Shown here one piece after another: positions 3,156 to 18,109 of a DNA stretch of 64,000 bases (positions are counted from its first letter, which is position 1; the number at the start of each line of letters is the position of its first letter). This DNA is from Promethearchaeota archaeon Loki_b31. GTDB taxonomy: Archaea > Asgardarchaeota > Lokiarchaeia > Sigyniarchaeales > SOKP01. The stretch spans positions 71,475-135,474 of the forward strand of contig NJBI01000002.1 of assembly GCA_005222975.1 (NCBI GenBank). Direction: 5' to 3'. Below the pieces are notes generated by a model. That model made no database searches, was not told where the DNA came from, and saw only the letters and a list, made by a program, of their open reading frames with translations. A program made the translations under genes and the position numbers.

Positions 3156-4001
3156 TTAATATTCGGTTGGCAATTTTTTAAGCTCTGCCAAAGAAAAAAC
3201 GGGACCATCGATACAGACATATTTATTGCCAATATTGCATCTCCCACATTTTCCAACTCCACACTTCATCCTCATTTCTAATGAATTTAGTATCTGTTCG
3301 TCATTAAATTTTAATTCTTCTAGAACTGCTATCGTCGTCTTAATCATGATTGGGGGGCCACACACTACAGCTATAGCGTTATCCGAAGAAGGGGCTACTT
3401 CCTTTACAATAGGGGCTACGAAACCTACTTTTTCTTTCCACCCTTCCTCTTCGCGATCAATCGTTAAAACCACTTCAATATCGTCGTGTTTTTTCCATTC
3501 TTCTAAAACATTGCGGTATAAAACTTCACCGGAGTCGCGATTTCCATAAATCACCGTGATCTTCTTGTAATCTTTTCTGTGCTTCTCGTTTAGCAAATAA
3601 ATAACGAGGGACCTTAAAGTTGAAAACGCGAACCCCCCACCAATAACCACAATATCCTTACCCTTCATTTCTTCAATAGGCCATCCGTTTCCAAAAGGAC
3701 CTCTTACGCCTACAACATCTCCAATATTGCAGTTGTGAAATTCCGATGTTACGGTTCCCATCTTTTTTATAGTAAATTTAATCGAGCCTTCTTCAGTAGG
3801 AGATGAAGCAACTCCTATAGGTGCTTCACCCTTTCCTATTAAACTTATTTCAGCGAATTGTCCAGGAATATAATTGAATTTATTATAATCTTCTTCTTTT
3901 TTAAATTCTAATTCAAGAGTTTTAATGTCATTAACTTTGTTTTCAGAAACAATATTTTTTATAGTGGTTAACGTTGGGATATAAAGATTAGGCACTTGCA
4001 T
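3156..4001 (-). CDS. flxA: FAD/NAD(P)-binding [2Fe-2S] oxidoreductase (FlxA/HydG/AsrB-like)
   Basis: PGQF, RGPFGNGW, VVCGPPIM, MKCGVGKCGRC...CIDGPVF. Confidence 0.85.
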   Translation of the reverse strand: MQVPNLYIPTLTTIKNIVSENKVNDIKTLELEFKKEEDYNKFNYIPGQFAEISLIGKGEAPIGVASSPTEEGSIKFTIKKMGTVTSEFHNCNIGDVVGVRGPFGNGWPIEEMKGKDIVVIGGGFAFSTLRSLVIYLLNEKHRKDYKKITVIYGNRDSGEVLYRNVLEEWKKHDDIEVVLTIDREEEGWKEKVGFVAPIVKEVAPSSDNAIAVVCGPPIMIKTTIAVLEELKFNDEQILNSLEMRMKCGVGKCGRCNIGNKYVCIDGPVFSLAELKKLPTEY

Positions 4002-5049
4002 TCTCCTCCTCTTTTGGTTTTATATTATTTATTTTATTAATTATTGTTCTGAGATCGTTATTAACTGGGCATACTTGGATACATCGTCCACATCCCACAC
4101 ATCCAATTATATCGTAATTCAAGGGGTAATAACTAAATTTGTGTAATATACGATTTCGGCATCGCTCAATATTACTATTGCGGGGATTGTGACCGCTCGT
4201 ATGAAGGGTATAAAGGCAGAATTGGCAAGTATCCCAGATTCTTATTCGTCTGCCACGATTCTCGTATTGAGCATTCTCATCGATAACATCAAAACAAGTG
4301 CATGTAGGGCATAAAAATGAACACGATCCACACCCTAAACAATTTTCGCTAACCTCTTCCCAAATTGCGTTGCCAAAATTACTTTCTAAAATCTCACTCG
4401 TGTTAGTTAGATCTAATTTTGTGGTTATTAAATCTTCTGCCTTCTTTGCTAATTCTTGTGCTTTTTTTATGTCTGCTTTAGAAGCTTTTAGAAGCCATGA
4501 CAATTGTTGAATTAAGTTATTACCTTTATCACTTATACCTTCTACTAAATATTTATCGCCTAAATCTACTAAAAAGATATCCATATCATCTTTTTGGAAG
4601 GGATGTCCTTCTATCGACGTACAAAAACATGTGCTTCTTGGAGAATTACAACCAATTCCTATTATTAAGCTATTTTCTCTTTTTTTTAAGAATATCTCAT
4701 CTTGGAAATCCCCAAAAGCAAAGAATTTTTCTAATAGATCAAAACTATGAGCATCGCACGGTCTTATACCGAAAAGAATATTTTTTTCGTCTAAATCTTT
4801 TCTATCTTCAATTTCTATAACATTTTTACCATCTGTTTTAAATTCAAAAAGAACTTCCATCTGTGGAAACAAAATTTCTTTTGGCGGAATTTTAGAATTG
4901 AAATAATTTAATTCAATTTCTTCTGGGTTTGAAATTTTTCTATAAGCAATATAACCTTTTTCTTTGACGGGAGCAAAGAAATTATATTCTCCTGATAACT
5001 CATTATATAACTTTGCGACCTGATCTTTCATTAAAATCATTACTTCCAT
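3988..5049 (-). CDS. flxB: 4Fe-4S dicluster protein (FlxB/HydB/AsrA-like)
   Basis: FGIRPCD, CFC, CLGCGSCSFLCPTCTCF, WDTC, CVGCGRCIQVCP. Confidence 0.85.
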   Translation of the reverse strand: MEVMILMKDQVAKLYNELSGEYNFFAPVKEKGYIAYRKISNPEEIELNYFNSKIPPKEILFPQMEVLFEFKTDGKNVIEIEDRKDLDEKNILFGIRPCDAHSFDLLEKFFAFGDFQDEIFLKKRENSLIIGIGCNSPRSTCFCTSIEGHPFQKDDMDIFLVDLGDKYLVEGISDKGNNLIQQLSWLLKASKADIKKAQELAKKAEDLITTKLDLTNTSEILESNFGNAIWEEVSENCLGCGSCSFLCPTCTCFDVIDENAQYENRGRRIRIWDTCQFCLYTLHTSGHNPRNSNIERCRNRILHKFSYYPLNYDIIGCVGCGRCIQVCPVNNDLRTIINKINNIKPKEEENASA

Positions 5050-5065
5050 TTTCTTACCACCTATA

Positions 5066-6103
5066 TTAATCCTCTTCCATCATAAATTCTTCTTTATCAT
5101 TTATATTAAACGACATCATTGGAGGTACCGTTTCTTTATCAATACCTGAAGTAAAGTTATATCTTTCTTTTACAATTTTCTCTAATTTTCTTGTTATTAA
5201 ATTCAAATCAATACCCATGGGGCAAACGCTACTACAAGCGCCACAAGCAACACATCTACCCGCTAAGTGCATAGCTCGATTAAAATGAAAAGCAAAAATA
5301 TCTGTAAAATCAGTTGTTTTTCCAAACCAAATGGGTTTATTTTGGTCCACGAAACACAGATTGCAATAACACATCGGACACACTTCTCTACACGCATAGC
5401 ATCTCGTACATGCGCTTAAAGTATCTTTAATATACGCCCATTTTTCTTCAGAAGTTTTGGATTCAAAATCAGAAATATCGTTAAAATCATCTTCAATAAC
5501 GGGATTTTCTAAGCATTCTCCTACACATGAACCATCCACGTTAGGAGGGGATTTGACTTTACAAACTTTACATAATTCATTCATATATTCGTCGAAAGGA
5601 AATGTTTCTTCAAAATCTCTTCCCTTTACGATAATATTATTACCCAAAATAGAGATTTCTAATATTTCTCTTTCTCCAATTTCCTTCTCAATTCTTTTTC
5701 TATTTATTATTCCATTACAGGAAATTCCTATCATTTTAATATTTTCAAAATTAATTTGATTCTCGACGGCTAAGTGAATTAATGCTCTTCCAACGCAACC
5801 TTTTGCGACAATACCAACTTTCAATTTTTGACCCTCTTCGTCGTACAGTGTAGGAATTCTAGGAGCTAAATAATTAGCTAAATTTACATAACATAAATTA
5901 TTCCACAACAATTTATCCACATCTTCTTCATTCGTAATGAAAACTGGAGAAGAGCTTAAGGGGACCGTTCCCTTTGTATAACCGATAATTACATCAACTT
6001 CCTTTTCTCTAAGCAACTTCCTTGCTAATTCTTTAATCTTATTTTCAATGTCTTGGTTTTCTGATTCAATATCCCCCACTTTTTTATCACCATTTTTTCT
6101 CAA
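5066..6103 (-). CDS. flxC: 4Fe-4S protein (FlxC-like)
   Basis: VDVIIGY, KGC, CTRCYACREVCPMCYC..C, HLAGRCVACGACSSVCP. Confidence 0.8.
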   Translation of the reverse strand: MRKNGDKKVGDIESENQDIENKIKELARKLLREKEVDVIIGYTKGTVPLSSSPVFITNEEDVDKLLWNNLCYVNLANYLAPRIPTLYDEEGQKLKVGIVAKGCVGRALIHLAVENQINFENIKMIGISCNGIINRKRIEKEIGEREILEISILGNNIIVKGRDFEETFPFDEYMNELCKVCKVKSPPNVDGSCVGECLENPVIEDDFNDISDFESKTSEEKWAYIKDTLSACTRCYACREVCPMCYCNLCFVDQNKPIWFGKTTDFTDIFAFHFNRAMHLAGRCVACGACSSVCPMGIDLNLITRKLEKIVKERYNFTSGIDKETVPPMMSFNINDKEEFMMEED

Positions 6104-6548
6104 ATTTTTTATTTGGTCCCAGTTTTTTAACCAATTTGGTGGTTTTTCTTATCAAAACAGCAAAACGTTCACCTTCAGCAGCAGAAGCCCACATAAAATT
6201 AACTCTATCTGGTTCAATTCCGAAGAATTCTAATAGATCCTTTAAAATTCCAAACCTTCTTCTAGCTACTAAATTTCCTGTTATATAATGGCAATCTCCG
6301 GGATGGCATCCAGAAACCAGAACTCCATCCCATCCATCTAATAATGCTTTTACTATAAAATAAGGATTTATTCTACCTGAACATGGAACTCTAACTACTC
6401 TAATATTTGGAGGGTATTGAATTCTACTCACTCCTGCTAGATCTGCTCCAGCATAGGAACACCAATTGCATAAAAATGCTAATATCTTAGGTTCCCATTC
6501 ATCATTACTATTTTTTATTTGTTCTGTTTCACTCGTAATTTCGTTCAT
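6087..6548 (-). CDS. mvhD: MvhD/FlxD [2Fe-2S] subunit
   Basis: FLCNWCSYAGADLAG, RVPCSGR, GCHPGDCHY, WASAAEG. Confidence 0.92.
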   Translation of the reverse strand: MNEITSETEQIKNSNDEWEPKILAFLCNWCSYAGADLAGVSRIQYPPNIRVVRVPCSGRINPYFIVKALLDGWDGVLVSGCHPGDCHYITGNLVARRRFGILKDLLEFFGIEPDRVNFMWASAAEGERFAVLIRKTTKLVKKLGPNKKFEKKW

Positions 6549-6552
6549 TTTA

Positions 6553-9500
6553 TTAATTCCTCCCAGTTATCATTGCAAATATTTGTTCACCTGTGAAACC
6601 GCGAATGTCAATGGCAGCACACCTGCAGTTACCTGCACACGCCCCACATCCTTTACAGAGTATCTGGTTTATATATGCAACTCTACCGAAATGCCTATCA
6701 TCGATTAATTCAATAGCATTATAGGCGCAATTCTCAATACACATCCCACACCCAGTACAACGAGCCATGTCAATCTCTCCGATTTTACCTTCAACCTCGA
6801 TCTCATCTTTAGAGAGAATTGTACAAGCCCTTGCAACAGCTGCGTTAGCTTGAGCAATAGAATCCTCAATTGTCTTTGGACAATGTGCTAATCCTGCCAC
6901 AAATACGCCTTCTGTAGCGAAATCTACTGGACGTAATTTAACATGGGCTTCTAAAAAGAAATTATCGTTGTTTAAAGGAACTTTTAGCATTTTTGCTAAC
7001 TCCTCGTTATCCTCGCGTTTTGCTATAATACCCGCACTCAAAACTAAAAGGTCGGATTCAATTGTAATTTCTCCCATCTTCTGAGTCTTTAATTTAACTT
7101 TTAATACTGAACCTTCTGAAATTATTTCTGGAGGATCATTTTCTTCGTATTTAATGAATATTACTCCATTTTCTCGCGCTTTTCGATAATACTTTTCTTT
7201 AAACCCATATGTTCTTATATCTCTAAATAAAACTACAACTTCAACATTTGGATTTTTCTGTTTTGCCAAAAGAGCGTTCTTTATCGCTTCAGCACAACAC
7301 ATTTTACTGCAATAGGGATGGTCGTCGTTTCTAGAACCAACACACTGGATCATAACTACTGATTTTTTATCGTTAATATCATTAGAGGTGTTTAATAATT
7401 TTTCAAATTCCGATTGTAGAATTACTTTGTTATTCTGACCGTATGAATACTCTGTAGGTTGATATTCACTGGCTCCTGTAGCTACAATCACCACTCCATG
7501 CTCAAACTCTGTTTTCTCTTTATTTGAACCGTGGATAACTGTAGTCTTAAAATTTCCAATATAACCATCAATAATTTCAATTTCTGCTTGAGTAAAAACA
7601 CGGATTAATTTGTTTGAATTGATTTTTTCAATTAAATCTGATATAAATTCTTGAACATTGCCACCTTCAAGCGTGGTATATATATGTCGAGCAAATCCCC
7701 CCAATTCTTTTTGTTTTTCAACCAAAAACGTCTCATATCCTTGCGTTGCAAAATTAAGTGCAGCAACCATTCCGCTAATTCCCCCTCCTACAATTAAAGT
7801 TTTTTGCGTTACTGGTAATTTTATCCGTTCGATAGCCTCAATATTTCTTGCTTTATTTACAGCCATCCTCACGAGGTCCTTCGCCTTTTCGGTTGCTTTT
7901 TCCCACTCGTTCATGTGAACCCAAGAACATTGATCTCTGATATTTGCCATTTGAAATAAATATCTATTTAAACCCGCTTCTCTAATTGTTTCTTGAAACA
8001 ACGGTTCGTGAGTTCTTGGCGTACAAGAAGCAACAACGACGCGGTTAAGGTGATATTCCTTTATTACATCTTTTATTATCGTTTGAGTATCTGCGGAACA
8101 TGTATATAAATTATTATCTGCTAAAACTACATTTGGAAGATTACTTGCATATTTGGTAACTTCTGGTACATCTAAAAAGCCCCCTATGTTAATTCCACAG
8201 TAACAGATAAACACACCAATTCTGGGCGGTTGACCTCTTACAAATATCTCCGGAGGAAGCGTTTTTTCTGTTATTAATGTACCTTTCTTTTCGTGTAAAA
8301 GTTGATTAACGCAACCAGCAGCAGCACTAGCTTGCGTAACTGTATCTGGAATGTCTTTAGGAGAAGAAAAAGCTCCACATGCAAATATTCCAGGTTTTGA
8401 TGTTTGTACGGGGTTAAAAATATCTGTTATAGCAAAATCATATTCATTTAATTCTACGCCGAACTTCTCCGCAAGAAATTTAGCGTCGTTAGGAGGATTT
8501 AAACCAACGGCAAGGACTACCATGTGATAATCCTCTTCTACTATTGTACCATCTTCCGTTTCATATTTAATTCTTAAGTCTTTCGTTTCTGGTACTTCGG
8601 TTATTGAAGATACACGGCTTCTAATATAGCGAACTCCATATTGTTCTTGTGCCCGAATAATATATTTATCAAAATCTTTACCATATGCCCTTACATCCAT
8701 GCTAAAAATCGTTGGCTGTATTTGATGCATGTGTTCATGGGCAATTACTGCTTCTTTCGCAGTATACATACAACATACTGACGAACAATAGGGCTTTCCT
8801 TTACCTGTATAATCACGAGAGCCTATACATTGGAGGAATGCTACTTTTTCTGGGACATCTCCGTCCGAGGGTCGTAATACTCTCCCCGCGTAAGGACCAC
8901 TAGCACTCAAAATTCTTTCAAACTCTATACTCGTAACTACGTTCTTATACTTTCCATACCCATAAAGGTTACCTTCTGATGGAATGTATTCGTCAAACCC
9001 AGGAGCCAATATTATTGCACCAACATTAATTTCGGCTTCCTCGTCTTTTCTATCGTATTCTATGGCTTTTGCTTTGCAGACTCCTTGACATATTCCGCAA
9101 CCAATACAATAATTTTTATCAATAGCAAATACGAGAGGTACTGCTTGAGGATATTTAACTGATGTTGCTGCATATTTCGCTAAACCTTCATTAAAGACAT
9201 CAATCGCTTCAACAGGACACTCACGACCACATACTCCACAACCAGTGCACTTTTCAGGGTTTATATATAACGATTTTTTTAGTACTTTTATTGTAAAATT
9301 TCCAGCTTCTCCTATAACATCTTGAATTTCACAATTAATACTCAAATCTATGTTCTGGTGTCGCCCAGTTTCAACTAACTTAGGACTTACAATACACATC
9401 GCACAATCGTTCGTAGGAAATGTTTTATCCAACTGTGCCATTACGCCACCAATGCTCGTCGTGGATTCAATCAAATAAACTTTGTATCCCGAATCTGCTA

Positions 9501-9567
9501 AGTCTAATGCCGCTTGCGAACCTCCAATTCCCGCACCTACAACCATTACTGCCCCAATCTTTTCCAT
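6553..9567 (-). CDS. hdrA: large heterodisulfide reductase subunit A-like flavoprotein (two FAD modules, 1004 aa)
   Basis: GAGIGG, LDKTFPTNDC, QCIGSR, CSSVCC, CTPRTHE, NIRDQCSWVH, second GGGISG, EAHVKLRP, C-terminal ferredoxin motifs. Confidence 0.92.
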   Translation of the reverse strand: MEKIGAVMVVGAGIGGSQAALDLADSGYKVYLIESTTSIGGVMAQLDKTFPTNDCAMCIVSPKLVETGRHQNIDLSINCEIQDVIGEAGNFTIKVLKKSLYINPEKCTGCGVCGRECPVEAIDVFNEGLAKYAATSVKYPQAVPLVFAIDKNYCIGCGICQGVCKAKAIEYDRKDEEAEINVGAIILAPGFDEYIPSEGNLYGYGKYKNVVTSIEFERILSASGPYAGRVLRPSDGDVPEKVAFLQCIGSRDYTGKGKPYCSSVCCMYTAKEAVIAHEHMHQIQPTIFSMDVRAYGKDFDKYIIRAQEQYGVRYIRSRVSSITEVPETKDLRIKYETEDGTIVEEDYHMVVLAVGLNPPNDAKFLAEKFGVELNEYDFAITDIFNPVQTSKPGIFACGAFSSPKDIPDTVTQASAAAGCVNQLLHEKKGTLITEKTLPPEIFVRGQPPRIGVFICYCGINIGGFLDVPEVTKYASNLPNVVLADNNLYTCSADTQTIIKDVIKEYHLNRVVVASCTPRTHEPLFQETIREAGLNRYLFQMANIRDQCSWVHMNEWEKATEKAKDLVRMAVNKARNIEAIERIKLPVTQKTLIVGGGISGMVAALNFATQGYETFLVEKQKELGGFARHIYTTLEGGNVQEFISDLIEKINSNKLIRVFTQAEIEIIDGYIGNFKTTVIHGSNKEKTEFEHGVVIVATGASEYQPTEYSYGQNNKVILQSEFEKLLNTSNDINDKKSVVMIQCVGSRNDDHPYCSKMCCAEAIKNALLAKQKNPNVEVVVLFRDIRTYGFKEKYYRKARENGVIFIKYEENDPPEIISEGSVLKVKLKTQKMGEITIESDLLVLSAGIIAKREDNEELAKMLKVPLNNDNFFLEAHVKLRPVDFATEGVFVAGLAHCPKTIEDSIAQANAAVARACTILSKDEIEVEGKIGEIDMARCTGCGMCIENCAYNAIELIDDRHFGRVAYINQILCKGCGACAGNCRCAAIDIRGFTGEQIFAMITGRN

Positions 9568-9571
9568 AATC

Positions 9572-10342
9572 TTATCTCCCCCATAACCTCATAAATATTG
9601 GTGTATTTCCTTTAATCTCTTGAAAGTCAACTTGACCGCGAGTTTTTAAAGTTAGTACATGCTCTAAAATTATACTCGGATCAATCTTTAACTCAACCGC
9701 TAAATCTTTTACAGAATTCGAATCTTTTTCTAAAGCAAGTAAAACTCGGTGCCGCTCAAATTCATCTGTTATCGCTTTATCCATTAAAATGTTAAAGCTC
9801 TGCTCAATGATTTGTTCCCCATAGACATTTTCACTTTCAAGTAGGGTTTTCTCTCTTCCTACTAATGCTCGCATCCTATTACTACCCGCGGCCAATTTTA
9901 TTGCTTTAAGTTTATCGAGTATATCTTCGTCGGGATTCTCCCCACTTAGGGGTGAAGGACCTAATTCTTTAATGTGCTTAATGAATTCGGTTACAACTTC
10001 ACCAAATCTAGTACCTTCCGAAGCAGAAACCCAATCTAATCTCACTCTTTTATCAAAGTTAATAAATTTAAGAAATTGTTGGGTCATATCAAATTTGGTT
10101 ATTGCTTCGTAATTTCCTTCAAGATAATGGCAATCTCCGGGATGACATCCCATTACAAATACTCCATCGATTCCTAATTCAAAAGCGTGAAAAATAAATT
10201 TAGGGTCAACTCGACCGCTACACATGACTCTAATTACTCGCATATTCGTAGGGTATTGAATTCTGCTAACACCTGCTAAATCGGCACCAGCATAGGAGCA
10301 CCAATTACATAAAAAACCTAAAATTTTTGGTTCAAAACTCAT
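9572..10342 (-). CDS. mvhD: MvhD-family protein with C-terminal extension (probable winged helix)
   Basis: MvhD motifs in about the first 130 aa; tail SVKDLAVELKIDPSIILEHVLTLKTRGQV. Confidence 0.85.
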   Translation of the reverse strand: MSFEPKILGFLCNWCSYAGADLAGVSRIQYPTNMRVIRVMCSGRVDPKFIFHAFELGIDGVFVMGCHPGDCHYLEGNYEAITKFDMTQQFLKFINFDKRVRLDWVSASEGTRFGEVVTEFIKHIKELGPSPLSGENPDEDILDKLKAIKLAAGSNRMRALVGREKTLLESENVYGEQIIEQSFNILMDKAITDEFERHRVLLALEKDSNSVKDLAVELKIDPSIILEHVLTLKTRGQVDFQEIKGNTPIFMRLWGR

Positions 10343-10347
10343 CTTTA

Positions 10348-12036
10348 TTAACCTCCAAAAGCTTCAATTTCAGAAAAAATTTGATCATCTGTAAAATGTC
10401 TTATCACAATTGCTTGACTCGTACATGTTGCACCACACACTCCGCATCCTTTACATAATGCTTCTATAATTTCAATCTCATCCTTTTCATTTTTGATAAT
10501 TGCATTAAAAGGACAGACTTTGATACATATTTCGCAACCAGTACACAGACTTTTATTATATTCGGGTAAACTTGATGTTGCTCCTTCTACTTCGAGCGAT
10601 TCATGAGACAAAACTCTGCTTGCCCTTGCCGCAGCAGCATATCCTTGAGTAATAGCTTCTGTTATATCTACGGGCCATTTAGCTGAACCACCAATATAGA
10701 TTCCATCTGTGGCAAAGTCGTTAGGACGTAGTTTTACGTGTGCCTCCAAAAAGAATTTGTTAGTTTCTAAAGGGACCTTTAACATTTGAGCAAGTTCTTT
10801 GTTATCGTTATTCGCAACTAACGGCGTTGATAACACAAGTAAATCATATGGAAGGATCAGTTCTTCCCCCATATATTCGTTAAATACTTTTACATGGTCT
10901 TCTTCTACAGTTGGTACTTTATCAAGACTATATTTAATAAAGAGCACGCCTTGTTCCCGTGCATCTCTATAGTATTTCTCGTAATCTGTTCCAGGAGTAT
11001 ATAAATCTCTAAATAAGATCGTAATATTTGCTTCAGGATTTTTTTCTTTAATAATTAAAGCATTTTTTAAAGCCGTCATGCAACAAACGCTTGAACAGTA
11101 TGGGCGTTCGTCAATTCGAGAACCTACGCACTGTATCATTACAAAATTATTTGCTTTTACATCGTTATTTATAAATTTATGCTCTAATTCAAATTGCGTG
11201 ATTCTTGTTTTACCGTCGTACCCATATAAATTGTTAGGCGTAAAAAGTGAAGAACCTACAGCAACTATTATAGCACCTACGGACAATTCAATATTTTTTC
11301 CATTTTGTTCTACTTCTACCTCGAAATTACCTACAAATCCATCAATATTTTTAACTATGGTTGATGTTAAAACTTGCAAATTTTGAGCATTTTGAATGTT
11401 ATTTTTAATTTTATCTAAAAAATCTGAAGCGTCTAATTGATGAGGAAAGAGTTTATGTAGCGAATTTAACCTTCCTCCTAATTTATCTTCCTTCTCAATT
11501 AAGTAGGTTTGAAATCCTTGTCTGCTTAAATTCAGAGCCGCACTCATACCAGCGACACCTCCACCAATTACTAAAGCGGACGGGTTAACACTTACCATGA
11601 TTATATCGAGTGCTTCAAGCTTTACAGCTTTAGCAGTTCCCATCCTAATTAAATCTTGAGCTTTCTTATAAGCTTCCTCGGGCTGCTTTTGATGTACCCA
11701 AGTACATTGATCACGAATATTAACAAAGTTAAAGAGATATTTGTTTAAACCCGCTTCGGAAACACAATCTCGGAATAAGGGTTCGTGAGTTCTTGGCGTA
11801 CAAGATGCTACAACAACGCGATTTAAATTGCGTTCTTCGATTGCCGCCTTAATACTCGCTAAACCGTTTTCTGAACAAGTATATAGGTTATCCTCTGCAT
11901 AGGTAACATTTGGAAGACTTTTTGCTTCTTCAGCTAAAGTCTTACAGTCTATCAAACCACCTATATTTGAACCACAATGACATACAAATACTCCCACCCT
12001 TACATCTTCAATATCTTTCTTTTCTTCTTCTGACAT
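10348..12036 (-). CDS. hdrA: HdrA-like flavoprotein corresponding to the C-terminal half of the 1004-aa HdrA
   Basis: GVFVCHCG, CTPRTHE, GGGVAG, QCVGSR, EAHVKLRP, C-terminal 2x[4Fe-4S]. Confidence 0.88.
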   Translation of the reverse strand: MSEEEKKDIEDVRVGVFVCHCGSNIGGLIDCKTLAEEAKSLPNVTYAEDNLYTCSENGLASIKAAIEERNLNRVVVASCTPRTHEPLFRDCVSEAGLNKYLFNFVNIRDQCTWVHQKQPEEAYKKAQDLIRMGTAKAVKLEALDIIMVSVNPSALVIGGGVAGMSAALNLSRQGFQTYLIEKEDKLGGRLNSLHKLFPHQLDASDFLDKIKNNIQNAQNLQVLTSTIVKNIDGFVGNFEVEVEQNGKNIELSVGAIIVAVGSSLFTPNNLYGYDGKTRITQFELEHKFINNDVKANNFVMIQCVGSRIDERPYCSSVCCMTALKNALIIKEKNPEANITILFRDLYTPGTDYEKYYRDAREQGVLFIKYSLDKVPTVEEDHVKVFNEYMGEELILPYDLLVLSTPLVANNDNKELAQMLKVPLETNKFFLEAHVKLRPNDFATDGIYIGGSAKWPVDITEAITQGYAAAARASRVLSHESLEVEGATSSLPEYNKSLCTGCEICIKVCPFNAIIKNEKDEIEIIEALCKGCGVCGATCTSQAIVIRHFTDDQIFSEIEAFGG

Positions 12037-12040
12037 TTTT

Positions 12041-13363
12041 TTAACCTCCTCTAATTACTTCTGCTGCCCTTGCTGCCGCACCGCTCGCCTCAGAAACCGA
12101 GCGTGGTATATCCATTGGCTCATGCACGCATCCGCATGTGAAGATACCTCCCTTACTGGTTTCTGTTGAGTCAAAAGGAGGAGTTTTAACAAATCTATAC
12201 TCGTTTAATTCAATACCTAAAACTTCTGACATTTTCTCAATTCCTTCTGGTGGGATAATACACGTGGCTAAAACTGCTAAGTCTACTTTTAATTCTTTTA
12301 TCTCTCCATTGTCCAAATCTTCATACACTATAATCGGATTTTCTTTATTATCAACGGTAATTTGAGCAATTTTACTCTTAATATATTTAATACTATAATC
12401 ATTTTCGCCCCTTTGAATAAAAGATTGAAAGCCTTTACCCCCTGCTCTCATATCTATATAAAAGACATACGACTCCAATTCATTATTATGCTCGTAAGCT
12501 ATCATAGCTTCTTTAGTTGTATACATACAACAAATCGACGAGCAATACTGTCTACTTCTATCGTTTCGTGAACCGATACATTGTAAATAAGCTATTTTTT
12601 TTGGTTTTTCTCCATCAGATAGTCTTTTTATGTGCCCATCTTGAGGTCCAGAAGCGCTTAACAATCTTTCGAATTCTAAGGCGGTAACGACATTCCTGTA
12701 CTTTTGATAACCGTAATTTCTTAAAACCTCATTATCAATATCTTCGATCAAATTATACCCCGTAGCAACGATAATAGAACCAACATTATTCAATTTAATT
12801 TGTTGATCTTGTTGCTCAAAATCAATTGCTTCCTTCTCACAAACTTTCTCACAAATTCTACAAGCGTTCTTTGTAAACCATAAGCAATTATCCTTATCAA
12901 TCGTCATTATAGCAGGAACTCCTTGCAAGTAATACATATAAATAGCTCTCCTTTTTCTTAGCTGACGATCGAATTCATCTATTACCCTCATTGGGCATTT
13001 TTCAGCGCAAACACCGCAATTTATACACTCATCTTCTTTAACGTAGCGTGCACGTTTTAAAATATCGACCGAAAAATTACCGCTCTCACCCTCCACTTTC
13101 TGAACTTCTGAATACGAATAGAGCGTAATGTTTGGATGTCTATAACATTCTGATAATTTAGGGGCTAATATGCAAATCGAACAATCGTTGGTAGGAAATG
13201 TTTTATCTAATTGGGCCATTCTGCCCCCGATATTTGGAGCTTTTTCTACCATATCTACATGTATTCCCATATCCGCTAAATCTAATGCTGCTTGAATTCC
13301 TGCGATCCCACCACCGATAACTAAGACACTCTTTGAGTTTTTTTCCAAATTTACTTCACTCAT
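12041..13363 (-). CDS. hdrA: HdrA-like flavoprotein corresponding to the N-terminal half of the 1004-aa HdrA
   Basis: GGGIAG, LDKTFPTNDC, inserted ferredoxin, QCIGSR, CSSICC, PMDIP. Confidence 0.88.
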   Translation of the reverse strand: MSEVNLEKNSKSVLVIGGGIAGIQAALDLADMGIHVDMVEKAPNIGGRMAQLDKTFPTNDCSICILAPKLSECYRHPNITLYSYSEVQKVEGESGNFSVDILKRARYVKEDECINCGVCAEKCPMRVIDEFDRQLRKRRAIYMYYLQGVPAIMTIDKDNCLWFTKNACRICEKVCEKEAIDFEQQDQQIKLNNVGSIIVATGYNLIEDIDNEVLRNYGYQKYRNVVTALEFERLLSASGPQDGHIKRLSDGEKPKKIAYLQCIGSRNDRSRQYCSSICCMYTTKEAMIAYEHNNELESYVFYIDMRAGGKGFQSFIQRGENDYSIKYIKSKIAQITVDNKENPIIVYEDLDNGEIKELKVDLAVLATCIIPPEGIEKMSEVLGIELNEYRFVKTPPFDSTETSKGGIFTCGCVHEPMDIPRSVSEASGAAARAAEVIRGG

Positions 13364-13387: not shown

Positions 13388-14263
13388 TTAAACATTAAAC
13401 CCTATACTTTCGAATAATTCCTTTGGTTTAATTCGATGAAAGTTAAATCCTAATTCTTCCGGTTTAAACCCAAATGATAAAGCCATCAACTCAGACAAAT
13501 AAAAAACAGGTATGTTGTATTCAGTATTATTTCTCTTGTTAAGTTCTCTCTGATTAAACTCAAATTGTTGATAACAAGCAGGACATACTACAACAACACA
13601 GTTAGCGCCAGCTTCATTAATTGCTTTCAATTTGTTGTCTATCATTTGCAGAGATAAATCCCTATCCGACTTATCAAGAGGATTTCCACAACACTCCATT
13701 TTTAGCTCATATTCTATGGATTCCGCTCCCAATGTCTTAACGATTTCATCTAAAGTTACTGGTTCAAATGGGTCGTCCCATTTAATAAACTCTGAAGGCC
13801 TTAAATAGTGACAACCGTAATGAATGGCGACCTTAAAACCTTCCAAGGGTTTTTCTATGTTTTCTTTAACTTTTTCTAGATTTTCATAAAGAACTTGAGC
13901 AAAATGTTTTACTTCTGTTTTGCCCTCATATGTCTTTCCAATCCTTTTTAAGTATTTGTTAACTTTTTGCTTAGCGTCTCTATCCTTATTTATAAAATAA
14001 TTTACGCCTTTTAATGTTTCAACGCATCCTGAGCAAAAAGATATGACTCCTCCATTGTTATTGCACAAACTTAAATTCCTTGCACCCAAAGCTAACCATG
14101 TTTCGTGGTCAATTAGTTCAATTCCAGTAGGATCAGGACAACAACTAAATCCGTCAACATCTCGTAATTCAATACCAAGTTTTTCAAAAACTTTTCTTGA
14201 AGATACCTCTAAATAAGGTAATCTTGCCGGAATAACGCAACCCAAAAATAAATCGTACGCCAT
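13388..14263 (-). CDS. hdrB: heterodisulfide reductase subunit B
   Basis: Two CCG domains: FLGC...CCP...CSGC and HYGCH...CCG...CPAC. Confidence 0.92.
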   Translation of the reverse strand: MAYDLFLGCVIPARLPYLEVSSRKVFEKLGIELRDVDGFSCCPDPTGIELIDHETWLALGARNLSLCNNNGGVISFCSGCVETLKGVNYFINKDRDAKQKVNKYLKRIGKTYEGKTEVKHFAQVLYENLEKVKENIEKPLEGFKVAIHYGCHYLRPSEFIKWDDPFEPVTLDEIVKTLGAESIEYELKMECCGNPLDKSDRDLSLQMIDNKLKAINEAGANCVVVVCPACYQQFEFNQRELNKRNNTEYNIPVFYLSELMALSFGFKPEELGFNFHRIKPKELFESIGFNV

Positions 14264-14264
14264 T

Positions 14265-14762
14265 TTATTCGCGCCCCCTCAAGATATTTTTTTCAAAATT
14301 AGTCTCTCTCATTAGAGTTTTAATCTCTTCCGCTGACGCGATTTTGATCTCTGGAAGACCTAATTTTTTACGCCTAGCAACGATCGAATTTGAATAAGGA
14401 ATGGCAACTCCAGTATCAAATACCGCTTTACCCTGGGAGTAAAACGCTTCGGGATATTTCTGCTCTTCAAAACACAAGTTTTTTATTAAAGTAAATATCT
14501 CCGTTAATTCTACCTTTTGAGGGCACAACTCAACGCATTTTTGACAAGTCGAACACAACCAGGGGTTAGGATCTTGACTCTCAACTAATTTATCCTTTAA
14601 TCCTAATATTGCCTCTTCAATTATTTTTCTAGGATTATACTTCCCATTTGTAAGTAAAGCTACAGGACACCCACCAGAACACGTTGAACATTGATAACAA
14701 TAACTTAATGAAGCGTTATGCTTGAGTACTTCGTTTCTAAAATTATAATTTACGACACTCAT
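14265..14762 (-). CDS. hdrC: heterodisulfide reductase subunit C
   Basis: CYQCSTCSGGCP, WLCSTCQKCVELCP; adjacent to hdrB. Confidence 0.92.
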   Translation of the reverse strand: MSVVNYNFRNEVLKHNASLSYCYQCSTCSGGCPVALLTNGKYNPRKIIEEAILGLKDKLVESQDPNPWLCSTCQKCVELCPQKVELTEIFTLIKNLCFEEQKYPEAFYSQGKAVFDTGVAIPYSNSIVARRKKLGLPEIKIASAEEIKTLMRETNFEKNILRGRE

Positions 14763-14881
14763 GTCAAAACCTCTTTTTCTAACCTTTTGTGATTTTTAAT
14801 GGTATAACTAATTTAAATTTTACAAAAAGGAAATATAAGTTCAATTAATTTATTACATTTCAGCACAATTAGATAAATTAT

Positions 14882-14946: not shown

Positions 14947-15225
14947 TTACTCGAGATGCTTTTGAAGATCTATGTAAATTGGTATCTCTTCGCCCTTCTT
15001 CTTAATTACAACTCTTAAAAGCCCATCCTCTATAGATGTTTCAATTGGTCTTAACTCTTCTTCGGACGCTTTTGGAGCGATATCCCCTTCAGGACGCTTC
15101 GTTTTAGTCTTTAAACAAGTGTGTTGCTCGTTATAGAGAAGACAGTGTGAACAACAAAAGCCTTCCGGCATATATCCCACTATTGAACACTTATCGTAAT
15201 TGTCGCAATTACAGTTGTTACACAT
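14947..15225 (-). CDS. 8-Cys microprotein paralogue 3 (92 aa)
   Basis: Shares MCNxCxC..YxxCSIVGYxPxxFCCxxCxxY.....C with both neighbours; GAGGT upstream of the ATG. Confidence 0.85.
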   Translation of the reverse strand: MCNNCNCDNYDKCSIVGYMPEGFCCSHCLLYNEQHTCLKTKTKRPEGDIAPKASEEELRPIETSIEDGLLRVVIKKKGEEIPIYIDLQKHLE

Positions 15226-15237
15226 AAGCGTTTACCT

Positions 15238-15468
15238 CTATTTGCCTATGATAGTGGTTATCTTTTCCTTTTTTGCTTCTTCCTGAGTTTCAACTCGAAT
15301 ATGTTGAGAATTTGAGTCAAAAACCTTTGCTTTCATTCTAATATAATTTTCGCACGAATGTCTATTTTCGTACCCTACACAAATTTCGCAACAAAACGCA
15401 ATCGGTTGGTACCCAACAATCGAACATCGATCGTAAGCATCTTGACTACAATTACAGCTATTACACAT
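15238..15468 (-). CDS. 8-Cys microprotein paralogue 2 (76 aa)
   Basis: Same motif; GAGGG upstream of the ATG. Confidence 0.85.
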   Translation of the reverse strand: MCNSCNCSQDAYDRCSIVGYQPIAFCCEICVGYENRHSCENYIRMKAKVFDSNSQHIRVETQEEAKKEKITTIIGK

Positions 15469-15488
15469 ATTTAATTCCCTCTCGATTT

Positions 15489-15665
15489 TTAGTGAATAAT
15501 TATCTGTGTTGGCAGGTTATTCCTGCTAAACTCAACTTCTCTTAGTGTCTGAAAGCATTTTTCCCGGTCTTCGTAAAAAACACATTTAGGACAACAAAAA
15601 CCTAATGGAAAATACCCGACAATGGAACATTTCTCGTAGTTTTCGCAATCGCAGTTATTACACAT
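15489..15665 (-). CDS. 8-Cys microprotein paralogue 1 (58 aa, not in ORF track)
   Basis: Hand translation MCNNCDCENYEKCSIVGYFPLGFCCPKCVFYEDREKCFQTLREVEFSRNNLPTQIIIH*. Confidence 0.85.
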   Translation of the reverse strand: MCNNCDCENYEKCSIVGYFPLGFCCPKCVFYEDREKCFQTLREVEFSRNNLPTQIIIH

Positions 15666-15821
15666 TTTTATTCACTTTTATTATTTTTTTATTGTGAATT
15701 AATTCCCACAATTTTTTTTACTATGATCATAATTAGATAAATTAGTATTTAAATGTGACTTTTTCCAACTTTTCGACTAGACTTTTTATCGATAATTATG
15801 ATTTTGTTTGTTTAGAGCAAT

Positions 15822-16333: not shown

Positions 16334-16753
16334 ATGGATGTTATAGACATTAAGATTTTAGAAGAATTAAAAATGGATAGTAGAATGTCGTTTAATGAAA
16401 TCAGTAAACGTATTATGAAAACAGAAGCAACCGTTAGAAGAAGAGTGAAAAAATTGAGAGAAGATGGAATTATCAAGCGGTTTACAATAGATTATGTAAT
16501 TGATACAAAACCTAAAACTTCCGCAACTATAAAAATAGAGCCTGATTTCAAAGATATTAAGCGAATTTTGAATGAATTAAAAGAAATTGAGGAAATAACG
16601 GCTATTTGGAGGTTATCTGGAGATTGTGGACTTCTTATGAAAGTAGATATTGCCTCTATCGAGAAGTTTAATCCCCTTATAGAAGACAAGATCTCTCAGG
16701 TTTCAGGAATAAAAATAGTAGAAACCTGTTTTATAACTGATATTATCAAATAA
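16334..16753 (+). CDS. Lrp/AsnC-family transcriptional regulator
   Basis: DxIDxKILxEL..DSR.SF.EI...TEATVRRRVKKL...GII HTH plus RAM domain (LSGDCGL). Confidence 0.92.
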   Translation: MDVIDIKILEELKMDSRMSFNEISKRIMKTEATVRRRVKKLREDGIIKRFTIDYVIDTKPKTSATIKIEPDFKDIKRILNELKEIEEITAIWRLSGDCGLLMKVDIASIEKFNPLIEDKISQVSGIKIVETCFITDIIK

Positions 16754-16981: not shown

Positions 16982-17167
16982 ATGATAAATATAATGATTA
17001 ACGAGGTAATTATTAACCCAAAAAGTTGCATTTTGTCGTGCCCATTTTCACACGCGTGCAACCTTCCCAAAGTTGAAAGTTTATGCAATTTTCCAGATTA
17101 TAAACTTTGCCATGATTACGATTCCAAACTAAAAAGATTAAAAGCCTCAACCAAAATCTTGCACTAA
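16982..17167 (+). CDS. small Cys-rich hypothetical protein
   Basis: CxxxCPFxxxC...C...CxxY in 61 aa; start uncertain. Confidence 0.6.
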   Translation: MINIMINEVIINPKSCILSCPFSHACNLPKVESLCNFPDYKLCHDYDSKLKRLKASTKILH

Positions 17168-17330: not shown

Positions 17331-17621
17331 TTATAACTCTTTCTCTATTAAAATCTCGTTCAAAACGATATCGAGCTCAATGTCGGAGTCTCTTATCTTT
17401 TTAACGACTTTCCTTAAACCATAATCGTTTAACATTAGTTCAATAATGTTTTTATATAACCCGACTATGTTTTCCTTGCCCGCTTCGTAAAAAATTTGAT
17501 CATCTTTATCAGCAAGGCCAATGCTTAGGATATCGTATAATCCCTTAATGGACTCCTTAATATCGTGGAAATTCTTCTCGGCTTTTTCTACACTACCATT
17601 CGTAAAATTTGTTTGAGGCAT
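17331..17621 (-). CDS. small helical hypothetical protein
   Basis: The ATG of MPQTNF at 17621 is preferred over the track start; a TATA-like element lies at about 17657-17665. Confidence 0.7.
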   Translation of the reverse strand: MPQTNFTNGSVEKAEKNFHDIKESIKGLYDILSIGLADKDDQIFYEAGKENIVGLYKNIIELMLNDYGLRKVVKKIRDSDIELDIVLNEILIEKEL

Positions 17622-18109
17622 TTTTTTAATCACTATGTTACAATAATAAATCTGAATATTTAAATGATTATTATTTTCGACTATTTCGTGTAAGTTCACG
17701 ATCAGCAAATGTAAGGGATTCTTATGGTGTTGACGAATATCATAAACAAAAATAATAAAATAACAGATAAGAAAATGTCGAAAATAGTAATAAAAAAAAC
17801 TTTAGGTGTGATGATAATCAAAAATATATTAAGTCGATCGACGAATCTCGTCATAAAGATCTTTTTTGATCGAACTTTTCTGAAAAATGAAGAAAAAGTC
17901 AATTTTTAGAACATTATTTTTTTAAAAAACAATAGATAAATAAGCTAATACTTAACATAGTTCTCTCTTTTAGAACCCAAAATATATAAAAAAAAAACTT
18001 TATTGAGATTTTTCTTCCAATTTTATATTAGAAGTGATATAAAGGCTGATAACACAACTTATTATTTTTATATCGAGTGATTTCGAAATTAATAAAAATG
18101 TTAAAAAAC

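Follow-up and report, generated by a model that had tools for sequence, protein, structure and literature searches.

A trio of small cysteine-rich genes upstream of an hdr-flx cluster

A stretch of 64,000 nucleotides (nt) from the genome of Promethearchaeota archaeon Loki_b31 (contig NJBI01000002.1; the window, in the following, means this whole stretch) contains three very short genes, here called cys58, cys76 and cys92. They follow one another on the minus strand directly upstream of an hdr-flx cluster, and each begins with a module that contains eight cysteines. Their positions, and those of the associated elements, are given below, with protein lengths in amino acids (aa).

15489-15665, minus strand: cys58, 58 aa, first gene of the trio; open reading frame (ORF) and profile match with E 3.6e-25
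15555-15665: eight-cysteine module of cys58, residues 1-37; the tail behind it is short and fast-evolving
15477-15483, minus strand: Shine-Dalgarno (SD)-like GAGAGGG, 8 nt before the cys76 ATG, read from the sequence
15238-15468, minus strand: cys76, 76 aa; module at residues 1-39 (nt 15352-15468)
15234-15238, minus strand: SD-like GAGGT, 8 nt before the cys92 ATG, overlapping the cys76 stop codon
14947-15225, minus strand: cys92, 92 aa; module at residues 1-37 (nt 15115-15225)
14950-15060: C-terminal beta domain of cys92, residues ~56-92; a Lys-rich linker lies between module and domain

A first reading of the window, which was based on the letters alone (the sequence-only reading), had described three co-oriented genes of 58, 76 and 92 aa at distances of 12-20 nt, and the reading frames confirmed this description. 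The intergenic gaps comprise 20 nt between cys58 and cys76 and 12 nt between cys76 and cys92. The claim that two of the genes are preceded by an SD-like GAGG was also correct, namely for cys76 and cys92, and direct inspection of the sequence upstream of the cys58 start revealed no SD-like site. A GAGG motif is additionally present 8 nt before the ATG of hdrC, the first gene of the hdr-flx cluster. This cluster had been placed 185 nt downstream on the same strand; trio and cluster lie on the minus strand, and the spacer from cys92 to the hdrC start at position 14762 was measured to be 184 nt.

The three modules can be aligned unambiguously over the first 37-39 residues, and 19 of 40 positions are invariant. 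The invariant set includes Met1, all eight cysteines and the core CSIVGY-P-(G/A)FCC, in agreement with the shared module and the invariant CSIVGYxP core that had been noticed before. Seven residues separate the third from the fourth cysteine in cys76, compared with five in cys58 and cys92. A profile built from the three modules retrieved exactly these three copies in a six-frame search of the 3.5-Mb genome, and, because each copy scored with E values of 1e-22 to 1e-25, the likeness within the trio is far beyond chance.

Comparison with relatives showed that the three genes are real and that the modules are under strong purifying selection. Synonymous divergence (dS) was saturated in these comparisons, while nonsynonymous divergence (dN) amounted to 0.08-0.37 for the module and to 0.17-0.39 for the tail of cys92; with the closest relative (locus L007), too few substitutions were present for dN/dS to be informative. 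The tails of cys58 and cys76 evolved much faster than the heads, with dN values of 0.6-1.2. For cys58, also at saturated dS, a dN of about 0.25 for the module stood against 0.7-1.2 for the tail. Orthologues of cys58 in genomes of the same genus have 58-60 aa, those of cys76 at three loci (L007, L023 and L024) have 76-79 aa, and homologues of cys92 were found in 126 clusters, most of them full length and with identities of 54-96%. From the contrast in dN we therefore regard the cys92 type as the conserved core member, and cys58 and cys76 as faster-evolving paralogues that have kept mainly the head.

Several database forms have only 74-75 aa and begin at Met19, so that the first four cysteines are missing, and the ESM Atlas holds the cys92 protein from residue 19 onward only. 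Because of these Met19 starts, and because cys58 was not called at all, it can be concluded that gene callers truncate or miss such genes, a weakness that this case exposes.

The module defines a family absent from the searched libraries

The pattern of the module is C-x2-C-x-C-x5(7)-C-x10-CC-x2-C-x8-C, with the first cysteine at residue 2. An exhaustive search of 1.84 billion representative proteins with a hidden Markov model (HMM) yielded 57 clusters only. All but two of them are free-standing proteins of 49-110 aa, in which the module is mostly located at the very N-terminus. Two long matches were rejected as spurious, a 1515-aa protein that was read as a filamin-like repeat protein, and a 722-aa protein with a weak match split over several stretches. 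No fused forms were present among the 1.84 billion representative proteins, and, among the matches listed for 400 genomes, none was situated in an open frame of more than 135 aa. A protein of 203 aa that emerged from the search for longer forms turned out to be an over-called ORF and not a fusion.

Seven of the cysteines were invariant in 138 sequences, and the eighth was kept in at least 90% of them. Of 52 representative clusters, 37 had exactly the spacing C-x2-C-x-C-x5-C-x10-CC-x2-C-x8-C and 45 had the first cysteine at residue 2; the x7 subtype, to which cys76 belongs, recurred in three representative clusters. The tails had been described as unrelated. This does not hold for cys92, whose tail, a beta domain free of cysteine, is conserved from end to end across more than 100 orthologue clusters; the tails of cys58 and cys76 are the fast-evolving ones. 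The further proposal that variable tails select partners is speculation, and the tail of cys92 is a conserved domain instead. Recurring tail types are the beta domain of cys92, an x7 type resembling cys76, and an extra 'ILPxxFCLK' segment, and many tails of the family end in [FY]P at the C-terminus. In one database homologue of 86 aa, P0121, the module is followed by a segment that resembles the C-terminal half of the GerE/LuxR helix-turn-helix (HTH; E 2.5e-4). This tail is restricted to a single cluster, is incomplete, and possibly belongs to a chimeric gene.

Scans of the three proteins against Pfam and NCBIfam gave no matches at E<=1, and a Pfam scan of 48 diverse family members at the same threshold gave no consistent match. 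The best hit of a PDB sequence search with a single protein was the PHD finger of BRD1, which was non-significant (E 0.1), and nothing was found in the PDB with the family profile. The ESM Atlas returned only the unnamed Promethearchaeota clusters of the family itself, and in the literature no paper was found that describes the eight-cysteine module. The sequence-only reading had called the family undescribed, and this was borne out by the lack of Pfam, NCBIfam and PDB sequence matches even at E<=1-10 and of any fold match. None of the libraries searched contains the family, which adds to the known repertoire an eight-cysteine domain that has no counterpart in Pfam, NCBIfam or the PDB. The kind of protein is familiar, i.e. 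a small cysteine-rich protein that accompanies a redox complex.

Genomic coupling to one Hdr-Flx cluster

The cluster downstream of the trio consists of the following parts.

14265-14762, minus strand: hdrC-like gene, 165 aa, 4Fe-4S dicluster domain (Pfam Fer4_8, E 2.8e-11); first cluster gene
13388-14263, minus strand: hdrB-like gene, 291 aa, two CCG domains (Pfam CCG, E 1.5e-25, two stretches)
3988-13363, minus strand: rest of the cluster, assigned by Pfam matches, with the same gene order in relatives; three HdrA-like flavoproteins (440, 562 and 1004 aa), two MvhD/FlpD proteins (256 and 153 aa) and two ferredoxin-domain genes (345 and 353 aa)

With the narrow profile, the eight-cysteine family was detected in a single GTDB family (f1), where 32 of 40 genomes carried one to three tandem copies each; the 160 genomes sampled from elsewhere in the phylum had no copy. 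When a broader profile of 48 sequences was applied to 400 genomes, 103 of 134 f1 genomes were found to carry the family, and single carrier genomes were detected in five further families (f2, f30, f31, f32 and f22). The NCBI labels of the database matches are Promethearchaeota, plus a few metagenome-assembled genomes labelled Thor or Heimdall. The family is lineage-restricted and occurs almost entirely within one GTDB family of the phylum.

To relate the genes to their surroundings, 33 related loci were fetched and the window proteins were mapped onto them. Adjacency was counted for the window and 28 f1 relatives, of which 26 loci were informative and three ended at a contig edge. The cys genes adjoin hdrC at 21 of the 26 informative loci. 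At fourteen of these loci the genes run in the same direction, the spacers measure 39-493 nt and the 92-aa type is always the one nearest to hdrC; at the other seven the arrangement is divergent, and the starts are about 580 nt apart. As both arrangements exist, the adjacency of cys and hdrC has therefore survived inversion.

The co-occurrence of the two partners was quantified in 41 f1 genomes. The hdrB orthologue of the cluster was defined by at least 58% identity, as opposed to about 45% for the ubiquitous HdrB paralogues, and within a sample of 201 genomes it was confined to f1. Both cys and this orthologue were present in 30 of the 41 genomes and both were absent in seven. The seven double-negative genomes are 89-99% complete and belong to at least five genera, other members of which have both. 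Only the orthologue was present in one genome (G153), and only cys in three (G077, G019 and G159). For G153 the contig stops 503 nt upstream of hdrC, and for G077 it stops just after the short cys gene, with otherwise identical synteny; these two exceptions look like assembly artefacts. Because related genomes are not independent in such a table, no P-value is given. Outside of f1, the cys genes of three carriers (G258, G246 and G242) again lie beside the orthologous hdr-flx cluster, and G246 and G242 have an Lrp-like gene there as well. The other four to five HdrB paralogues per genome have no cys neighbour.

These results strongly support that the cys genes are genomically coupled to one specific Hdr-Flx cluster, and the link to the downstream cluster that had been suggested for the window is upheld by the synteny at 21 of 26 loci and by the co-occurrence over 41 genomes. 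It had also been proposed to score synteny with both hdrC and lrp. The link to hdrC proved to be strong, and that to a gene for an Lrp/AsnC regulator is looser, at about 12 of 31 loci. A functional tie is the best-supported statement of this analysis, because joint absence is seen in several genera, the adjacency has survived inversion, and the arrangement recurs outside the family. Accordingly, we regard it as very probable that the eight-cysteine family works with this Hdr-Flx complex.

Some peculiarities of individual loci were also observed. In hdrB of the window (13388-14263, minus strand), the first CCG-type motif reads CCP and the second is a canonical CCG. At locus L040 (G198:C2, 8899-9359), the hdrB orthologue is present as two fragments (residues 1-21 and 184-282), although the remainder of the cluster and its three cys genes are intact; this may represent a broken gene or an assembly error. 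At two loci (L023 and L039, from G174 and G135), the mvhD-hdrA(1004) pair is apparently duplicated in tandem, in that a second mvhD256-like and a second hdrA1004-like match follow the first. At two loci of genus g4 (L033, G147:C1, 8367-10490, and L037, G040:C50), a pair of cys genes is flanked by an FMN_red gene for an NADPH-dependent flavin mononucleotide (FMN) reductase, and at L033 a gene for a CxxCxxCC protein (PF03692), putatively chelating Zn or Fe, follows the pair on the opposite strand.

Predicted structure and metal signature

An AlphaFold2 model of the 92-aa protein, based on 40 sequences, had a predicted local distance difference test (pLDDT) score of about 43 for the module and of about 80 for residues ~59-91, which form a three-stranded antiparallel meander and a short helix. 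A model of the module alone, based on 138 sequences, reached a pLDDT of 59.5 and contained essentially no secondary structure. Foldseek searches of the PDB with both models gave no match at E<=0.001, and a wide search with VIA-align gave a best Z of 3.5, which denotes a common arrangement only. A short segment without predicted structure, with invariant cysteines and conserved Gly/Pro turns, is what would be expected of a metal-knuckle fold that forms only around its metal. Judged from the sequence pattern, the eight cysteines probably ligate metal as two four-cysteine sites.

The module was compared with known small metal-binding domains. Among these are the metal-binding TRASH/YHS domains (PF08394 and PF04945), including small archaeal TRASH proteins whose genes adjoin those of Lrp-type regulators. 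The cys module is likewise a small, archaeal, cysteine-rich putative metal domain, and it is often encoded near an Lrp/AsnC gene. The TRASH spacing is C-x2-C-x19-22-C-x3-C, and cysteines 1, 2, 5 and 7 of the module form the arrangement C2-x2-C5-x18-C24-x3-C28, one residue short of it. The cys module differs by its four extra invariant cysteines, and the Pfam TRASH and YHS models matched none of the 48 family members at E<=1. A six-frame search of 41 family genomes with PF08394 matched other genes but never the cys loci, and genome G000 had no match at all. In contrast to the cross-brace zinc fingers of the PHD/RING type (C4HC3/C3HC4), the module has neither a histidine ligand nor a terminal CxxC, and there was no significant match.

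A small redox partner as the preferred explanation

HdrABC-type complexes are widespread in Asgard archaea, and models of Asgard energy metabolism draw on them. To our knowledge, the Asgard organisms do not have the heterodisulfide of the methanogens, and no partner of their HdrB is known. For a lokiarchaeon, it has been proposed that Hdr may work in a Flx-type way (bioRxiv 10.1101/826495). A strongly conserved cysteine protein that tracks one Hdr-Flx cluster is a concrete candidate for a partner, carrier, substrate or sensor, and the cys genes probably encode an unstudied partner of this Hdr-Flx enzyme.

The explanation that we prefer, tentatively and with a rough probability of 0.35-0.45, is that the cys proteins are small Fe-S or metal redox partners of the Hdr-Flx complex, either carriers or loosely attached subunits. 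The free-standing small proteins would hold metal in the N-terminal module via the eight rigidly spaced cysteines, most likely in two four-cysteine sites that would contain Fe-S clusters or Fe/Zn ions. They would serve as dedicated small redox partners of one complex of the HdrCB-HdrA-MvhD-Flx type, which is presumably electron-bifurcating. The likeliest role would be that of a ferredoxin-like electron carrier, or of an accessory subunit that is loosely attached and docks by the conserved beta tail of cys92, with the additional tandem copies as variants that evolve faster. The metal binding, the type of the metal centre and the role as carrier or subunit are what we infer from the observations described above.

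Known proteins of this kind are the Fe(Cys)4 proteins desulforedoxin and rubredoxin and the small 2x[4Fe-4S] ferredoxins, which are also very small redox proteins made up of little more than their cysteine ligands. Desulforedoxin also uses a vicinal CC pair, and it is usually eight-cysteine ferredoxins that serve HdrA-type bifurcating enzymes as low-potential partners. The Pfam models for Fer4, rubredoxin and desulforedoxin did not match the three proteins or the 48 family members at E<=1. The 4Fe-4S ferredoxin motif CX2CX2CX3CP is absent from the cys proteins, and no two-cubane ferredoxin is known to be as short as the module with its 37 residues.

Several observations speak against the assignment as a redox partner. 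A role in thiol/disulfide chemistry or as a sensor fits the same data. No relative of known function could be detected for the module, the AlphaFold2 models of it are not confident (pLDDT 43-59), and 37 residues are very small for two cubane clusters. Two genomes of genus g3, G019 and G159, have kept only a paralogue of 53-55 aa, without the hdr cluster. The cys genes of genus g4 lie beside the FMN-reductase gene and have no linkage to hdr. A core stoichiometric subunit is disfavoured because the spacers are long and variable (39-493 nt), the orientation flips, and the g4 genes are unlinked; the same three features fit an abundant partner that is expressed separately.

Alternative explanations

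One alternative is that the cys proteins are thiol/disulfide substrates of the complex. The CxxC, CxC and vicinal CC motifs would cycle between the thiol and the disulfide or persulfide form, and cys92 would be the physiological oxidant that is reduced at the CCG clusters of HdrB, a part that has been proposed for DsrC with the bacterial FlxABCD-HdrABC. The model for such a function is DsrC (PF04358), which has been discussed as a redox partner of Hdr-like enzymes including FlxABCD-HdrABC (PMC6470260). DsrC is likewise a small, free-standing, cysteine-bearing protein that is tied to an Hdr-type enzyme, and the cys protein could fill the same logical slot. The known HdrB-type substrates were not detected in the window's genome, since neither DsrC nor the CoM/CoB markers McrA and ComA were found in this 92%-complete genome. 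Furthermore, HdrB has retained both CCG domains, the cys genes accompany only this orthologue of hdrB, and a small cysteine protein with its own SD motif, and possibly its own promoter, beside hdrCB resembles the carriers that accompany Hdr-like systems. However, eight cysteines at fixed spacing in a module without predicted secondary structure suit metal ligation better than a redox-active pair. They are packed at the N-terminus and are likely metal-bound, whereas DsrC-type carriers are folded proteins with two cysteines on a flexible C-terminal arm, and Pfam scans revealed no homology to DsrC. It seems unlikely that cys92 is the physiological acceptor of the orphan Asgard HdrB, be it as a protein thiol/disulfide or as a metal-thiolate centre reduced at the CCG clusters. 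If this were the case, flavin-based electron bifurcation in this lineage would depend on a dedicated protein of 10 kDa in place of CoM-S-S-CoB or DsrC, and the tandem paralogues would be alternative acceptors.

A second alternative is a redox or metal sensor, in which an exposed SoxR-like [2Fe-2S] or metal site would signal the redox or iron state to the neighbouring Lrp/AsnC regulator, or directly to the complex, and would thereby tune the expression or activity of hdr-flx. The [2Fe-2S] cluster of E. coli SoxR is solvent-exposed and is bound by Cys119, 122, 124 and 130 in the motif CX2CXCX5C (PMC8063818). The first four cysteines of the module have exactly this motif. Their spacing of x2/x1/x5 is the same in 49 of 52 pattern-fitting representative clusters and in two of the three window genes (cys76 has x7), and the module is, like the SoxR segment, short, loop-like and without regular secondary structure. 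The sequence-only reading had recognised no ferredoxin, rubredoxin or zinc-ribbon spacing in the module. Matches to ferredoxins and rubredoxins are absent, but it would not be entirely accurate to say that the module fits no known spacing, given the exact agreement with SoxR and the near agreement with TRASH. The likeness to SoxR is one of spacing only. There is no sequence homology, the cys proteins lack a MerR-type DNA-binding HTH domain and a dimerisation helix, and the SoxR segment is C-terminal, while the module is located at the extreme N-terminus and four further invariant cysteines follow. The elements that could take part in regulation are listed below.

16334-16753, plus strand: gene for an Lrp/AsnC regulator, 139 aa, divergent from the trio; Pfam HTH_24, HTH_AsnC-type and AsnC_trans_reg
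15731-15744, minus strand: first copy of the 14-nt word TAATTTATCTAATT, 66 nt upstream of the cys58 start
14867-14880, minus strand: second copy of TAATTTATCTAATT, 105 nt upstream of the hdrC start and inside the cys92-hdrC spacer

The sensor explanation is favoured by the Lrp/AsnC gene, which is recurrent near the cys genes and is also found at the out-of-family loci L051 and L054, by the identical 14-nt word before the trio and before hdrC, and by P0121, which joins the module to the GerE/LuxR recognition-helix-like fragment. However, the Lrp gene is inconstant and most loci lack it, and the GerE-like tail is the incomplete one of a single cluster. The two exact copies of TAATTTATCTAATT are the only ones in the 64-kb window, and a function as a shared operator was rejected, as, apart from this genome, the word occurs only in a single close congener (L007) and is not shared by 12 other relatives. 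It is at most a local feature. Taken together, we consider a sensor function to be doubtful.

A third alternative is that the cys proteins act in assembly, as metallochaperones that would supply the unusual non-cubane [4Fe-4S] sites of this HdrB, or the numerous Fe-S sites encoded in the cluster, with iron or pre-formed clusters. The coupling is specific to one HdrCB orthologue group, the proteins are small, cysteine-rich and equipped with their own expression signals, and the copy number varies from one to three, all of which would suit this role. It is nevertheless improbable, in that other HdrB paralogues in the same genomes, with the same CCG domains, manage without cys genes, and similarity to known scaffolds or carriers was lacking.

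A general metallothionein-like buffer or detoxifier that stays near hdr only by inherited gene order would agree with the cysteine content of the module (8 of 37 residues, 22%), with its CxC, CC and CxxC motifs, with the unlinked genes of g4 and with the short paralogues that persist without the cluster in G019 and G159, but it is highly improbable. The cys genes occur together with the hdr cluster, or are missing together with it, across at least five genera, and the adjacency was kept through inversion and outside f1. The rigid spacing and the conserved aromatic (Tyr and Phe) and Gly/Pro positions (CSIVGY-P-GF) are unlike typical metallothioneins, and of the Pfam metallothionein models only PF12749 gave a match, which was weak (E 0.3) and confined to one of 48 members. 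The arrangement of a conserved head and a variable tail was also considered as that of a precursor of ribosomally synthesised and post-translationally modified peptides, and this was rejected: there are no maturase genes nearby, the cysteine-rich part is the conserved one, and the tail of cys92 is conserved.

Further genes in the neighbourhood

Two further small reading frames are situated beyond the Lrp/AsnC gene. A candidate ORF of 61 aa with six cysteines and without a Pfam match (16982-17167, plus strand) lies between the Lrp gene and the gene for P0178. The latter (17331-17708, minus strand; probable start Met30) encodes a small cysteine-free protein that has no Pfam match. It is a recurrent neighbour of the cys/hdr region in many relatives, at loci L023-L025, L029-L032, L034, L044 and L047-L049, and at L029 the P0178-type gene adjoins a cys gene although hdr is absent.

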